A program made the position numbers and the translations under genes. A DNA stretch of 13,130 nt from the NCBI GenBank assembly GCA_046597055.1, contig JBKJLC010000002.1, forward strand, positions 1-13,130, written 5' to 3'. The notes beneath the pieces were generated by a model that saw only the letters and a list, made by a program, of their open reading frames with translations, ran no database searches and was not told the origin of the DNA. Of the stretch, positions 1-12,907 are shown in pieces (position 1 is the first letter of the stretch; every line of letters starts with the position of its first letter). The DNA is from Kofleriaceae bacterium. GTDB taxonomy: Bacteria > Myxococcota_A > Polyangia > Haliangiales > Haliangiaceae.

Positions 1-344
1 CCGCCGTGATCGCGCAGCAGCTGCTCGGACAGCGCCCGCAGGTTCCTGGCCTTGGTCGGCGCCAGCCCGCAGGTCTGGATGTGCCCGAGGATCTGGGCGG
101 TCGGCAGGCGCGCCATGGCGGCGGCGTCGGGCGCCTGCGCGAACAGGGCGGGGGTGACCAGGTTGACCCGGGCGTCGGTGCACTGGGCCGACAGCACCAC
201 CGCGACCAGCAGCTGGAAGGGATCGCCGTGATCGAGCGGGATCGCCGGCGCCGGGAAGCGCGCGTCGAGGATGGCGCCGATGCGCGCGATCTTCTCGGCG
301 CGGGACAGCCGCGGGGCCGGCGGCGGGCTAGCGATCGTCGTCAT
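1..344 (-). CDS. nth: Endonuclease III (HhH-GPD DNA glycosylase/AP lyase), 5' part only; truncated by window edge
   Basis: Manual translation from ATG at 344 (not in ORF track): MTTIASPPPAPRLSRAEKIARIGAILDARFPAPAIPLDHGDPFQLLVAVVLSAQCTDARVNLVTPALFAQAPDAAAMARLPTAQILGHIQTCGLAPTKARNLRALSEQLLRDHG. PFQLLVAVVLSAQCTDARVN and GLxxxKARN are Nth signatures. The start overlaps the upstream gene's end by 17 nt. Confidence 0.93.
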   Translation of the reverse strand, partial: MTTIASPPPAPRLSRAEKIARIGAILDARFPAPAIPLDHGDPFQLLVAVVLSAQCTDARVNLVTPALFAQAPDAAAMARLPTAQILGHIQTCGLAPTKARNLRALSEQLLRDHG

Positions 345-2007
345 CGAGCAAGGGCGCGGCGGCCGGCGCCGGCATCGCCTCGGCCGGGACATCGGTGTTG
401 AGCGTGGCGTACAGCTTCCGGGCGTCGGCGTTGCGCGGCTCGAGCCGGAGCGCGGTCTCGAGCGCGGCCTGGGCGGCCGCCTTGTTGCCGCGCTGCAGCT
501 GGACGACCGCCTCGCCGAGGAAGCCACGGGCCCGCTCGGGCTGGCTGCGCTGGGCGGCCTGGTAGTGGGCCAGGGCGCGGTCGGGCTGGCCGACCTTGAG
601 GTCGAGCTCGCCGAGGTAGTAGTGGGCGTACTCCGACGACGGGTCGACCTCGAGCAGGCCGCGGTAGGCCTGGCGCGCGCTGGCGTCGTCGCCGAGCCGG
701 CGGGCCGCGCCGCCCCAGTACCGGTGGTAGTCGGCCGCGACGTCGCTGGCGCGGGCCGCGATCGCAGGGACGGTCGCGGCCAGGCCGACGATCAGGCAGC
801 TGCGCATCGCGGCGCGGCCGTCGCGCCGGATGCCCGCGATGATGACCGCGACCACGAGCCCCACGAACAGGCCCGCGACCAGCGTGCCCGTCAGCTCGGG
901 CGAGACGAAGACGGGCCGGGTCGCCACCGCGAGGAACGCGGCAATCGCGACCCCGCCGGCGGCGGCGCCGCGCACCACCACTGGCAACCGACGGACCTGG
1001 GCCGCGATCGCCGCGCCGAGGCGATGGACGGGGGCGTACACGCGGTCGGGCACGACCAGCAGGTACAGCGCGAACATCAGGTACGAGAACAGGCCGATCT
1101 CGAGGCCGACCAGCTCGATGCCGAGGTGGAGGCCGACGCCGACCACCAGCGCGAACGGCCACAGCTTGCGCCACCACACGGCCGCGACCAGGAACAGCTC
1201 GCCGGCGATCACGCTCATCGCCACCGGGGACCAGCCGACCGCCGCCAGCAGGTCGTGGATCGAGCCGGGCTTCACCTGCCGCGCCAGCGTGGTGCCGTCG
1301 AGCCACAGCGGATCCATCTTGGAGATCGCGGCGTAGCCGTAGACGAGCCCGAGCTGGACCAGCACCAGCCGCAGCGCCCACGAGCGCACCGCCGGCGGCA
1401 CCCCGGCCGCGGCCCGCGCCGGCGCCGGGTCGGGCGCGGTCGGCACGAAGCACAGCAGCACCAGCAGCAGCCAGACCAGGTAGTGATGCTGGTACGAGTC
1501 GAGCTGGCTGACGAAGTAGGTGTAGCCGTAGAGCGCGGTGGCGATCGGCAGCAGCACCCGCACCAGCGCGCCCTGCGCGATCAGCGCGAACCCGAGGCAC
1601 AGCACCGCATGCAGGAACGTCATGAGCCCGCGGCCGGCCTCGGGCAGCAGGCCGGGGACGTGCTGCACGTTGAAGCCGCCGGCGCCGTAGCGCGGCGCGT
1701 GCGACAGCTGCAGATACGCATCGACCGCCAGCAGCGCGAAGAAGACGAACCGGAACCCGACCAGCTTGGCCCACGGGATCTCGAAGCCGGCCCAGAAGCC
1801 ACCGCCGGCGATCGGCGAGCTCACGTGGGCGCGCGGCAGCGGCTCGCGCCGCGGCGGCGGCGGCGGATTGCCGCGCAGCGGGGGCTCGTTGGCATCGACG
1901 ACCGGTGCGGGCGCCGCGGTCACGGGCGGCGCGGGTACCACCGTCACGACCGGCGGCCGGGGCGCGGGCGGACGCGCGCCGCGTCGAGGAGGCGTGCGCT
2001 TGCCCAT
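328..2007 (-). CDS. HTTM-domain / vitamin K-dependent gamma-carboxylase-like membrane protein with C-terminal TPR repeats (559 aa)
   Basis: Pro/Arg-rich N-terminus, then multiple hydrophobic segments with family motifs LVGFRFVF, YQHHYL, QLGLVYGYAAISKMDPLWLDG and LHLGIELVGLEIGLFSYLM. About three TPRs follow (AYRGLLEVDPSSEYAHYYLG; ALETALRLEPRNADA). Confidence 0.85.
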   Translation of the reverse strand: MGKRTPPRRGARPPAPRPPVVTVVPAPPVTAAPAPVVDANEPPLRGNPPPPPRREPLPRAHVSSPIAGGGFWAGFEIPWAKLVGFRFVFFALLAVDAYLQLSHAPRYGAGGFNVQHVPGLLPEAGRGLMTFLHAVLCLGFALIAQGALVRVLLPIATALYGYTYFVSQLDSYQHHYLVWLLLVLLCFVPTAPDPAPARAAAGVPPAVRSWALRLVLVQLGLVYGYAAISKMDPLWLDGTTLARQVKPGSIHDLLAAVGWSPVAMSVIAGELFLVAAVWWRKLWPFALVVGVGLHLGIELVGLEIGLFSYLMFALYLLVVPDRVYAPVHRLGAAIAAQVRRLPVVVRGAAAGGVAIAAFLAVATRPVFVSPELTGTLVAGLFVGLVVAVIIAGIRRDGRAAMRSCLIVGLAATVPAIAARASDVAADYHRYWGGAARRLGDDASARQAYRGLLEVDPSSEYAHYYLGELDLKVGQPDRALAHYQAAQRSQPERARGFLGEAVVQLQRGNKAAAQAALETALRLEPRNADARKLYATLNTDVPAEAMPAPAAAPLLDDDDR

Positions 2008-2008
2008 C

Positions 2009-2439
2009 TCAGAGCTCCGGGATCTTGCAGAGATCGAAGCCGCCGACCGCGTACGGCTCGCCCGCGACCGGGACGCAGCGCAGGCGCGCGACCACCGGCT
2101 GACCCGGGCTCTTGCGACACAGGTGACGGCCCATCGCCGAGACCACCGAGCGCCGGCCCCGCGCCGCGATCTGCTGCCAGGCGTCGTGGAACTCGCTGGT
2201 CACCGCGACCGGCCGGTTGCCGACCGACAGCTCGAGGTCGCACCGCAGCATGCGCATCGGCGAGAACATCCGCCAGGCGAAGCGCTCGTCGTGCTCGTCG
2301 CGCGCCATCAGGTAGTAGTGCAGCGGCACCGCCAGCTGGATCACCAGCCACAGCGCGATGAAGCCGTTCGGCCAGCGCCCCAGCCAGCGGCCGGCCGCGG
2401 TGACGGCATCGAAGACGACGAGCGCGGGCGACTGGGTGG

Positions 2440-2443
<4 letters not shown>
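2009..2443 (-). CDS. Small membrane-anchored protein (144 aa) resembling the C-terminal/lumenal part of vitamin K-dependent carboxylases (SdpA-like partner of the HTTM protein)
   Basis: Last 144 codons of shadow ORF 2009..6850. GTG at 2443 overlaps the lhr stop (GTGA), and its TGA ends 1 nt before the HTTM ATG. Composition is protein-like, unlike the Arg-rich shadow part upstream. It has one TM helix (FIALWLVIQLAVPLHYYL), the motif RFAWRMF and 4 Cys. Confidence 0.85.
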
Positions 2444-6969
<4,526 letters not shown>

Positions 6970-6999
6970 ACAGTACTCACGCGGCCGCGCCGAAATCAA
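6970..6999 (-). promoter_or_regulatory. Putative sigma70-type promoter for the lhr operon
   Basis: Minus strand TTGATT (6999-6994), 18-nt spacer, TACTGT (6975-6970). The -10 lies inside the LexA-like box. Confidence 0.45.
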
Positions 7000-7026: not shown

Positions 7027-7719
7027 TCAGGGTTCCGAGAGGGCGGTCCGGTCGCCGGTGTAGTGATACCGGATCTGCGCGTCGCTGTAGCGGTGGTCGC
7101 GGCCGCGCGGGCAAGCATCGCGGACCCCCAGCCACAGCCGCCAGCGCTCGCGCAGCTCGGCGGTGCCGCGGGGTGGTCCGGCCGCCAGCGCGCGCTCGAG
7201 CGCCGGTCCGCAGCCGTGGGCGCAGTCGCAGGGCGCGACCGGTTTCGGGCGGGGGCCGGGGCCCTCGACGTCGATCGCGATCGCGGCGCGCAGCGCGATC
7301 CACGGCCCGTAGGTCGGATGCACGCTCAGGTGGCTGGGCGATAGCCAGGCCAGGCCGGCGGCTTCGGCCAGCTGCTGCATCGCGATCCGTCGCGGCGGTG
7401 GCTCGGGCGCGAACCGGAGCTCGACCGCGGGCACCGGGCTGAGCCCGGCGAGGACGTCGGTGACCGCGGCGGTCACCACCCCGGCGACGTGCTGGTCGAC
7501 TGGATTGGCGCGGCCGTCGGCGCCGGCGCGGATCTGGGGCCACAGCGCACGGGTGTTGGCGATCAGGACCACCAGCGCGCGGGGCCGGCCGTGGTCGGGC
7601 AGCCGGTAGCTGTCCGCAACCCGGACGTTGTAGTCGGCGGCGGCGCAGCTCGCCACCAGGTCGAGCCCGGCGCCGGCGCAGCGGGCGCCGATCGCGGCGG
7701 TGATGGCTTCGGGATCCAC
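7027..7719 (-). CDS. MMACHC/CblC-like cobalamin-processing protein (nitroreductase-like fold), 230 aa
   Basis: Collinear motifs resembling MMACHC as recalled: YNVRVADSYRLP, LVVLIANTRALW, NPVDQHVA, RRIAMQQLAEAAGLA, SVHPTYGPWIALRAAI, WRLWLGVRDA and RYSDAQIRY. GTG start. Confidence 0.75.
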   Translation of the reverse strand: MDPEAITAAIGARCAGAGLDLVASCAAADYNVRVADSYRLPDHGRPRALVVLIANTRALWPQIRAGADGRANPVDQHVAGVVTAAVTDVLAGLSPVPAVELRFAPEPPPRRIAMQQLAEAAGLAWLSPSHLSVHPTYGPWIALRAAIAIDVEGPGPRPKPVAPCDCAHGCGPALERALAAGPPRGTAELRERWRLWLGVRDACPRGRDHRYSDAQIRYHYTGDRTALSEP

Positions 7720-10999: not shown

Positions 11000-11566
11000 A
11001 TGCGATCGATCAGTACCGTTCGTCTTCTCGCCGCTCTCACCCTGGCCCTCGGTCTTGCTGCCTGCGGCGGCAGTAGCGACGGGGACGACGATGACGACAC
11101 CGGCCGCACCGACGCTTCGACCGACGCCGCCGGCGGCGCCGCGGTCGATGCTGCTCCCTCGCCCGATGCGCCTGCCGGGCTCACCGGCCTCGGTCAGGCC
11201 TGCGTTCCATCGATGATGGGCGCTGATTGCCCGGCCAACGCCAACGGCTGTCTGTCCACGCAGGGCGCCTCCACCGGCTACTGCACGAAGCTCTGCGTCG
11301 CGAGCGCCACGTTCATGACCAACGCCCAGTCGCAGCCGGGGCCGAGCACACCTCTGCCCTCGACCCAGGACGCGATGTGCACCGCGATCTTCTCGGGCAC
11401 GACCGGGACGGCCGCTTGCCTCGTTCCGGTCAACGTCATGCCGATGCCGCCGCTGCAGCCGAACACGAACTACACCGCAGCCTTCGCTTGCGGCATCCGC
11501 TGCGGGGCGGGCAACACCTGCCCGGGCAGCCTCACTTGCAACATGCAGCTCATGGAGTGCCGCTGA
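11000..11566 (+). CDS. Cys-rich lipoprotein of unknown function (188 aa)
   Basis: Signal peptide with lipobox LAAC, an Asp/Ala/Pro linker (SDGDDDDD...DAAPSPDAP), then a domain with 12 further Cys including two CxxxC. Confidence 0.85.
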   Translation: MRSISTVRLLAALTLALGLAACGGSSDGDDDDDTGRTDASTDAAGGAAVDAAPSPDAPAGLTGLGQACVPSMMGADCPANANGCLSTQGASTGYCTKLCVASATFMTNAQSQPGPSTPLPSTQDAMCTAIFSGTTGTAACLVPVNVMPMPPLQPNTNYTAAFACGIRCGAGNTCPGSLTCNMQLMECR

Positions 11567-11575
11567 CGCGCTGAC

Positions 11576-12907
11576 CTACCGAGTTATCACCGTGCCGACC
11601 GCGGGCGATGGCGAGACGATAGTCAGGTCGGGATCGAAGGTCGCCGTAGGCGGCAGATTGACGCGGATCCGACCCGCGCCACCGCCACCGCCACCGCCAT
11701 ACGACACCCCGGAGCCGCCGACGCCCGCAGGGCTAACGCCGGCGGCCCCGTCGCCTCCGCTGAAGTTTCCGCAGTTGCTCCCCTGTGCCGGCGATGCGGA
11801 CAACATGCCGTCATTGCCATGAAGACGGAATCCGCAGCCTCCGGAACCGCCGTTGGCCACCAGCCCGGAGGTGCCGAGCATCTCGAGCGCGGACGCCTCG
11901 ATCAAGATGGCACCGCCGGAACCGCCGCCAGACCCCTGGTCACACGCAGGCGGTTGGCCGGCGAATACCACGCAGCTCACGTTCGTGCTGCCGGTGAATC
12001 CCTTGGCCCCGCCGCCGTTCGCAGCGACGAATGCCCCGGGTTGGACCCGGATGCGACCTCTCGCGGAAAGCTGTAGCGCGCCCCCGCCCGCACCTGGCCG
12101 GCCGTCCTCTGCAGTCGGTCCCTGGACACCGAACGCTAGCGCTCCCGGACAGCCACCACGGAGAGGGGTCAGCGTCGCATCGCCGTTCGGTGTTCCGCCT
12201 CCGCCGCTCCTGCCACCCCCACCCGTGCCCCCACGCCCTCCGGCCGAGCCGAAGGCGCCGCCGCCCCCGCCGCCGGTACCGTCGGGTGCCTGCGTGCCCT
12301 GACCCGCAGTGCAGACGCTCGCCGGGCTGGCTAGCGCCCCCGGGCCGGGCGTTCCGAGGGCCGCAGACAGGCTGAGCGTGCCGTTCAGCGTCACGTCCCC
12401 GTCAACGAGTATCGCGAGTGCGCGAGCGCCCCGCACTGTCACGTTGCCGGCCTCGAGGGACCGCACACTGATTGCGAGGGTGCCGACCGGGCTGGAGTTA
12501 ACGATCGCTGCCCGCACGACCACGGTCGAGCCGTCCCCGTTCGTCACGGTCTGCGTGGTGGTGTCGATGATCGCGTTGCCCGTCAACACGAGCGGGCTCG
12601 CGCTCGCGGCTTGGTCGAGGTAGATGCCCAGATCGTTCGATGGCGCGAGGTCGTTGCACCGGTCGCCCGACGCGGCGCAGCCGAACCCGCACGTGCTGAC
12701 GGTCGGCACGGCCGCGGCGTCGCACGCCACGAGCGTGGCGTCGGCGCACGTCGTCGTGTTTGCCGTGCAGTTGATTGGTGCATCGGGGGCAGCATCGACG
12801 GACGCATCCGTCTCCTCGAGTGCTGGAAGGGCGGGGAACCCGCACGAGAGCGTGACGGCAGTCGTCAGCGCCAGAACGCAGCAGCGGCCTGTGTGCCATG
12901 TCTTCAT
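11576..12907 (-). CDS. Glycine-rich exported protein, probable lipoprotein (443 aa)
   Basis: ATG 12907 with SD-like AAGGA upstream. Hydrophobic signal ending TLSC, DASVDAAPDA linker and a small Cys-rich module, then poly-Gly tracts alternating with beta-strand-like segments (GAGGGALQLSA, GGGSGGAILIEA, GGGGGGAGRIRVN). Confidence 0.85.
   Translation of the reverse strand: MKTWHTGRCCVLALTTAVTLSCGFPALPALEETDASVDAAPDAPINCTANTTTCADATLVACDAAAVPTVSTCGFGCAASGDRCNDLAPSNDLGIYLDQAASASPLVLTGNAIIDTTTQTVTNGDGSTVVVRAAIVNSSPVGTLAISVRSLEAGNVTVRGARALAILVDGDVTLNGTLSLSAALGTPGPGALASPASVCTAGQGTQAPDGTGGGGGGAFGSAGGRGGTGGGGRSGGGGTPNGDATLTPLRGGCPGALAFGVQGPTAEDGRPGAGGGALQLSARGRIRVQPGAFVAANGGGAKGFTGSTNVSCVVFAGQPPACDQGSGGGSGGAILIEASALEMLGTSGLVANGGSGGCGFRLHGNDGMLSASPAQGSNCGNFSGGDGAAGVSPAGVGGSGVSYGGGGGGGAGRIRVNLPPTATFDPDLTIVSPSPAVGTVITR

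Follow-up and report, generated by a model that had tools for sequence, protein, structure and literature searches.

The window analysed here is a stretch of 13,130 nucleotides from a contig of a Kofleriaceae bacterium (JBKJLC010000002.1, assembly GCA_046597055.1), and its minus strand encodes two adjacent proteins that resemble the two halves of a vitamin K-dependent carboxylase in swapped order. The gene order on that strand is an Lhr helicase, an open reading frame (ORF) of 144 amino acids (the small subunit), an ORF of 559 amino acids (the large subunit) and an HhH-GPD glycosylase, and each gene abuts or overlaps the next (Table 1). One base lies between the small and large genes. The GTG start of the small gene overlaps the Lhr stop codon as GTGA; no Shine-Dalgarno sequence is evident, and the exact start was therefore placed from this overlap and from the lengths of homologues. 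A first-pass annotation, made from the letters of the window, had proposed this hidden gene, and it proved to be real: the GC content at its third codon positions (0.97) is that of its neighbours (0.96–0.97), and 577 homologues were found out of 614 candidates, which argues against a chance ORF. The family comprises 626 clusters at 50% identity, and its named relatives are from the Kofleriaceae and the Myxococcales.

Table 1. Position of the two subunit genes, their features and the flanking genes in the window (TPR, tetratricopeptide repeat; GGCX, human vitamin K-dependent carboxylase)
Feature	Position	Strand	Description
Small subunit gene	2009..2443	−	144 aa; homologous to the part of single-chain vitamin K-dependent carboxylases made up of the last membrane helix, loop LL9 and clamp A
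Single membrane helix (predicted)	2306..2374	−	Residues 24–46; helix in the model, hydropathy and alignments; Q36/P40 equivalent to GGCX Q374/P378
DERFAWRMFS loop	2261..2290	−	Residues 52–61, aligned to GGCX 394–403
Clamp-A-like alpha/beta domain	2012..2251	−	Residues 65–144; four invariant Cys; predicted periplasmic
Large subunit gene	328..2007	−	559 aa; Pro-rich leader, HTTM domain, three additional membrane helices, TPRs
HTTM domain PF05090	1051..1770	−	Residues 80–319; E 2.7e-16; 60.4 bits against a cut-off of 27.7
YQHHY motif	1480..1494	−	Residues 172–176; H174/H175 align to GGCX N159/H160
K230	1318..1320	−	Equivalent of GGCX catalytic base K218 by alignment
Three extra hydrophobic helices	757..981	−	Residues 343–417
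TPR region	400..726	−	Residues 428–536, predicted periplasmic
Lhr helicase gene	2440..6999	−	5′ of the small gene; lineage-limited neighbour, outside the system
HhH-GPD (endonuclease III-like) gene	3..344	−	Overlaps the end of the large gene; cut by the contig end; lineage-limited

We assembled 59 small genes: that of the window, those of four other loci and 54 from a scan of 301 genomes of the phylum, after removal of a single-chain match. Four of these loci were set aside (no partner, frameshifts, contig end), which left 55 aligned pairs. The small protein itself matched no Pfam family at E ≤ 0.1, and none above cut-off. PF22777, the lumenal domain of the carboxylases, was the commonest Pfam match of the small proteins; it was the top family at E ≤ 1 in 71 of the 98 close homologues that were aligned from the 120 listed (best E 1.7e-4) and in 31 of the 55 proteins of the broad set (best 3.6e-5). 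The reciprocal search with PF22777 found two small-family genes (E 3e-4 and 9e-4), and the small-family profile matched the lumenal domain of a single-chain protein in genome G283 (E 2.5e-7). When the family was aligned with 25 single-chain carboxylases from the same phylum, HHalign gave a probability of 94.2% (E 1.2e-7, columns 289–401), compared with 0.1% for a control with the reversed alignment. QxxxPLRHxLY...EGxRFxWRVM of the single-chain proteins aligns here with QxxxPLxYY...DERFAWRMF of the small family. D52, R54 and W57 were present in 55/55 pairs, and the pattern D.R[FWY].W in all 150 listed representatives. Searches of the sequences in the Protein Data Bank (PDB) with a single HTTM region or with small-family profiles returned no carboxylase.

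The model of the small protein (mean predicted local distance difference test, pLDDT, 85) has an alpha/beta domain besides its one long helix. A structural search placed GGCX (9bum_A) fourth among 48,161 chains (Z 5.2, root-mean-square deviation 2.1 over 76 residues), and residues 65–144 of the model superpose on GGCX 405–499 in the register that the sequences predict. Foldseek returned nothing at E ≤ 0.001 for this model, and GGCX was not among its matches. The predicted fold is consistent with clamp A without being decisive, and it is the sequence evidence that carries the assignment: by these alignments, the small gene is a homologue of the missing C-terminal half of the carboxylase.

The large subunit supplies the other half. 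PF05090 matched 43 of the 55 large subunits, the large-family profile matched residues 57–319 of human GGCX (E 1e-21), and HHalign against the 25 single-chain proteins gave 99.7% over columns 10–277, so that the two families tile the single-chain form without overlap. The large protein carries IGLFSYLM at residue 304, and in the same chain there is neither QLxxP nor [FY]xWxM, nor any PF22777 match above cut-off. The absence of the two motifs had been noted in the first-pass annotation together with the small-protein motifs IQLAVPLHYYL (residue 35), ERFAWRMF (residue 53) and AMGRHLCR (residue 103), all of which are present, and its proposal of a split carboxylase with the halves in reversed order is supported: the homology of the small protein to the missing half is shown by the profile alignments, by the reciprocal PF22777 matches and, weakly, by the fold. 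The likeness to the lumenal domain that it expected appeared in the profiles and modestly in the structural search, but not in Foldseek. C109 of AMGRHLCR, which it had also quoted, falls two positions from GGCX C450 in a two-step alignment. Being one of the four Cys invariant in the small family (C68, C109, C123, C139), this residue more probably takes part in a disulfide within the small protein.

Behind the HTTM domain, three extra hydrophobic segments are found in 45 of the 55 large subunits, and the successive loops contain on average 4.9, 0.3 and 2.9 Lys plus Arg. By the positive-inside rule the tail is predicted to end outside, alongside the four-Cys domain of the small subunit. The extra helices would thus return the chain to the periplasm, where the TPRs would face the active site and take the place of clamp B of GGCX. 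The TPRs, reported earlier as a gain of the large subunit, are there in the window, but they vary in the family: the commonest TPR family matches 16 of 55 large subunits. The idea that the first extra helix is what remains of the last helix of GGCX was rejected (HHalign 0.4% and 0.2%).

The two genes stay together. An HTTM gene lies directly downstream of 58 of the 59 small genes, and under a simple start rule 32 of these 58 overlap it by four bases. The small profile matched 51 of the 301 genomes, or 49 without G283 (single-chain) and the divergent G058; the large-type profile matched 52, or 49 without three single-chain cross-matches, and the 49 genomes are identical. As 43 of the pairs had gone into the large profile, the positive co-occurrence is partly circular; the informative direction is that none of the 301 genomes had a large-type gene without a small gene. 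Genome G281 retains both genes on different contigs, unlinked. All other neighbours, among ORFs of at least 80 aa, track kinship: Lhr occurs at 8 loci, a phosphoesterase-like ORF at 10 and a genus-specific block at 12. A functional link to Lhr or endonuclease III was rejected, as both accompany the pair in near kin only. No chain fusing an HTTM domain to the small family was found: four matches proved to be unrelated fusions or artefacts of read-through or frameshift, there were 0 in 8000 candidates, and no HTTM domain occurred among 11 long representatives, which is weak evidence.

Some members of the family depart from this layout. At L086 (G058) a divergent split pair consists of a 128-aa small gene and a 267-aa HTTM protein with Asn-His and no tail, possibly an intermediate between split and single-chain forms. 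Small subunits with a 10–11-Cys insertion that contains DxDGDGxPD occur at L045, L046, L048–L050, L053, L054 and L058; we take this motif to be calcium-binding-like. L055 (G145) and P0140 have the small subunit fused C-terminally to a Ser/Thr kinase domain, and P0193, P0198 and P0204 have additional N-terminal membrane helices. Fusions of the small subunit C-terminal to a 2Fe-2S/4Fe-4S module were seen in two genomes (L044:6629-7789 in G241, and L060 in G061; 2 of 59 loci) and in three of 150 representatives (P0135, P0173, P0178). These genes are preceded by an RnfD/NqrB-NuoF-like fusion gene and by two ORFs, one CxxCH-rich and one FGE-sulfatase-like, with a nitric oxide reductase gene near by at L044; this cluster could be a quinol-regenerating module. 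Elsewhere in the window, a 230-aa ORF upstream of Lhr (7027-7719, minus strand) is Cys-rich at its C-terminus and matches MMACHC weakly (E 0.002), and two Cys/Gly-rich lipoprotein-like ORFs (11000-11566, plus strand; 11576-12907, minus strand) are without a Pfam family.

The alignment allowed us to place the active-site residues in human GGCX numbering (chain number plus 31), and the roles of these residues were taken from the available part of the GGCX study (PMC12647623). Besides K230, the large chain carries W235 (W223 in GGCX), E270 (D263), H294 (H287) and F307 (F299). The small chain carries E53 at Y395, W57 (W399), M59 (M401), F60 (M402), R64 (R406) and R97 (H440). The window proteins thus keep the equivalents of Lys218, Trp223, acid-263 and Met401 (K230, W235, E270, M59) and of the CO2 pocket Phe299, Met401 and Met402 (F307, M59, F60), but not the Glu-binding triad Asn159/His160/Tyr395, which is His/His/Glu. 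Lys at position 218 was kept in 43 of the 55 pairs, and in these the quinol- and CO2-site equivalents are divided between the chains, with K218 and F299 in the large and M401 in the small one. The F299 and M401 equivalents occurred in 43/43 of the Lys-bearing pairs and the H160 equivalent in 42/43; K230, F307 and M59 are strict in these pairs, which span several families with 23–58% identity. The remaining 12 pairs, all from one genus (L064, L068, L069, L071–L073, L075, L076, L079, L083, L084, L087), have the Lys/Trp segment with K230 and W235 deleted and have lost M59 at the same loci. Loss of K230 and M59 together counts as one event; it is consistent with a shared site and is no independent proof of it. 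The Lys-less pair is likely a pseudo-enzyme.

These data suggest a menaquinol-, O2- and CO2-using enzyme that would add a carboxyl group to an acidic residue in an envelope protein, a reading to which we give a probability of about 45%. Its parts differ in strength. That the two proteins form one inner-membrane heterodimer is very probable, and Lys-dependent quinol oxygenation is likely; carboxylation as the outcome falls slightly short of even odds. Translational coupling would provide the subunits at 1:1. The helix of the small subunit would replace the last helix of GGCX and lay the DERFAWRMF loop over the quinol pocket. K230 would then deprotonate menaquinol, O2 would add, and the resulting strong base would abstract a proton adjacent to the substrate carboxylate, which H174/H175 and R64/R97 would bind, whereupon the carbanion would capture CO2 held by F307, M59 and F60. 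The three extra helices would place the TPRs on the face of the active site, where GGCX has its propeptide clamp B, and the TPRs probably recruit the envelope-protein substrate. The genome encodes menD, and MK-8 is reported for Haliangium in the available part of PMC3035250.

Several observations weigh against carboxylation. The N159 position is His, with YQHH in 42/43 Lys-bearing pairs versus Asn-His in 25/25 single-chain relatives, and the Y395 position is Glu in 41/43, which could repel a glutamate substrate; N159A and Y395A are both reported to impair GGCX (PMC12647623, available in part). The single-chain relatives themselves have Met, Phe, Trp or His at 395, and Tyr in 1/25. At the D263 position the 43 Lys-bearing pairs have either Gln (16) or Glu (27). 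Since 12 of 55 pairs persist with the Lys region deleted, the pair would have a use without Lys chemistry. No conserved substrate or precursor gene lies beside the pair among ORFs of at least 80 aa, a size limit under which shorter or divergent precursors would escape. The TPR tail varies in length between about 30 and 175 residues, and one divergent member lacks it. As to the homology itself, all the PF22777 matches quoted above are weak and below the curated cut-off, Rubisco small subunits score level with GGCX in the structural search (Z 5.3 versus 5.2), and a Z of about 5.2 falls in the range that the search tool calls common.

The altered substrate side would also suit other outcomes. With the same dimer and quinol-driven base, the carbanion could be reprotonated or eliminate, and the pair would be a peptide epimerase or dehydratase with E53 as proton donor, an activity also suspected of pairs of HTTM and small membrane proteins in linaridin and SDP maturation. 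The invariant acidic D52/E53 at the substrate site would fit this, as would published work on linaridins, whose clusters are marked by HTTM and LinL genes of unclear mechanism (PMC9927463) and which contain D-amino acids (PMC10849128; both available in part). We nevertheless consider it unlikely, as the sampled DUF5819-linked HTTM proteins have DGGDN where the split family retains H160 in YQHH, the F299/M401 equivalents of the CO2 pocket are kept throughout the Lys-bearing pairs, and the neighbourhood holds no conserved precursor gene. If D52 and E53 instead formed a cross-subunit metal site with H174 and H175, the enzyme would be a metal oxygenase supplied with quinol, either a hydroxylase or a desaturase. 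N159, L394 and Y395, which line one GGCX pocket, are indeed replaced by two His and two carboxylates; all 12 Lys-less pairs retain D52, however, as would be expected of a structural residue, and we hold this putative site to be quite improbable.

Other explanations dispense with a modified substrate. The pair might act on no carbon substrate at all and serve as a quinol oxygenase or a redox sensor, epoxidising menaquinol or signalling the state of the quinone pool through its TPRs, and the two genomes with the small subunit fused to an Fe-S module behind an RnfD-NuoF-like gene would agree with it. An epoxidase-only homologue is said to exist in Leptospira; the literature searched did not list it. 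Those fusions are a small minority, though, and YQHH, DER, R64 and R97 on the substrate side are conserved as well as the quinol-side residues, which leaves this reading improbable. For the 12 Lys-less pairs, which remain coupled without K230, W235 and M59, the likely role is that of a scaffold or receptor in the membrane, without catalysis, in which the fold is retained and the TPRs are presented, and the fusion of one small subunit to a kinase domain would suit it; extended to all pairs it has poor odds, given how strictly K230, F307 and M59 are kept in the other 43. Finally, the two proteins could be homologous to halves and yet work apart, their adjacency inherited: the association is deduced from sequence, and the genes are unlinked in G281. 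This is very improbable, as 58 of 59 pairs are adjacent while all other neighbours vary, both genes are present in the same 49 genomes, and the active-site residues are divided between the chains. Carboxylation of an envelope protein stays our preferred reading. More doubtful is the whole taken jointly: a periplasmic protein-modifying enzyme of myxobacteria that has vitamin K-carboxylase chemistry with a new reaction or target, a cross-subunit His-His-Asp-Glu site and substrate capture by TPRs. The family may also be a link at the level of sequence, which would show that a two-gene system with the small gene first was fused to give GGCX.

Among bacterial relatives of the carboxylases, the literature covered states a substrate for MloH only. 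The split family is unnamed, large and present in 49 of the 301 sampled genomes. Because it keeps the quinol/CO2 machinery while the changes on its substrate side are themselves conserved, it offers a defined target in the search for a new menaquinone-dependent modification of envelope proteins, and the Lys-less clade and the Fe-S fusions are natural controls. No description of it was found in the literature searched, a coverage that leaves out most subscription journals.

Its closest relatives in sequence, for both halves, are the single-chain carboxylases with PF05090 and PF22777, MloH included. Both share QxxxPLxxY...R[FY]xWRxM and the K218/W223/H287/F299 equivalents; the split pair differs in its two chains, reversed gene order, four-Cys small domain and TPR tail, and in the changes of N159 to His, G394/aromatic-395 to Asp/Glu and D263 to Glu/Gln. 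Two single-chain HTTM+PF22777 genes occur in the same genome (L127 and L128, G000:C104), each 3′ of an imelysin gene, whereas the split pair follows none; they lie near di-haem oxidoreductase and HmuY genes, and imelysins are candidate substrates of this single-chain branch. Human GGCX (9BUM, 9WFN; PMC12647623, available in part) shares the HTTM profile match, the clamp-A fold match and the residues of the quinol and CO2 pockets, but it is one chain, has N159 and Y395, and has clamp B and a C-terminal domain, which the pair lacks, and hence the pair has no propeptide exosite. In its layout, LinG of the linaridins is likewise an HTTM protein that works with a second membrane-associated protein, LinL, according to the available sources; the split pair has no conserved precursor peptide or alpha/beta-hydrolase partner.

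The nearest layout is that of DUF5819 and HTTM genes. We take SdpA to be a DUF5819 protein, DUF5819 (PF19136) to be SdpA/YitP-like and its HTTM partner SdpB-like. Both systems have a one-helix small gene directly 5′ of the HTTM gene, and in both the pair covers the GGCX membrane domain and one clamp, with a W-x-[ML]-F loop from the small subunit. The small subunits, however, are not detectably homologous (HHalign 0.7% against eight DUF5819 sequences), no small-family protein matched PF19136, and PF19136 matched 1 of 301 genomes, away from the split-pair loci; a likeness to SdpA, for which the first-pass annotation had proposed a check, was not detectable. Its remark that no SdpC-like toxin gene adjoins the pair is in line with the lack of a conserved neighbour among ORFs of at least 80 aa; short hypothetical ORFs do lie just 5′ at the DUF5819 loci examined, and sdpABC and yitPOM are reported to produce peptide toxins (PMC6818787, available in part). 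The sampled DUF5819-linked HTTM proteins carry DGGDN instead of YQHH, and DCC1 instead of the extra helices and TPRs. At L115 (G115:C60), in a genome of the same family, a precursor-like ORF precedes DUF5819 and HTTM-DCC1-like genes beside an insertion-sequence-like gene. By profile comparison, the myxobacterial split family is distinct from DUF5819, and its HTTM domain is closer to the single-chain (E 3e-26) than to the SdpB-like proteins (7e-11). In quick unrooted trees the split (26 rows), single-chain (16) and SdpB-like (8) sequences formed separate supported groups, each set apart by a single branch. That the split arose independently was considered and could not be established: in an unrooted quick tree of 27 rows neither split+SdpB (approximately unbiased test, p 0.46) nor split+single-chain (p 0.61) was rejected.

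The genome holds a second small-gene and HTTM pair (L126:1010-2361, G000:C161), whose 155-aa one-helix protein has a YPMF loop, matches no Pfam family and could be aligned neither to the split family nor to DUF5819; the pair follows a haem-motif/TPR gene and lies about 26 kb from menD. Stand-alone PF22777 proteins of 167 aa form a cluster in the Atlas (score 0.82), which is a lead only. According to the available part of a preprint (bioRxiv 10.64898/2026.08.19.745780), adjacent DUF5819 and HTTM proteins were modelled with AlphaFold 3 as a GGCX-like heterodimer, with MloH noted as the fused form; the preprint contains 12,298 predicted pairs. That split-enzyme model itself rests on a predicted complex, and the eight DUF5819 proteins did not align with the single-chain carboxylases (HHalign), whereas the myxobacterial small subunit aligns to the C-terminal half by sequence and so lends the model independent support. 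The surprise that the first-pass annotation saw in a split enzyme was overrated, although the pair itself is supported: with the DUF5819 model, the second pair of this genome and the stand-alone PF22777 cluster, the split layout is recurrent and already proposed, and what is new is an unnamed myxobacterial family with an active-site signature of its own.

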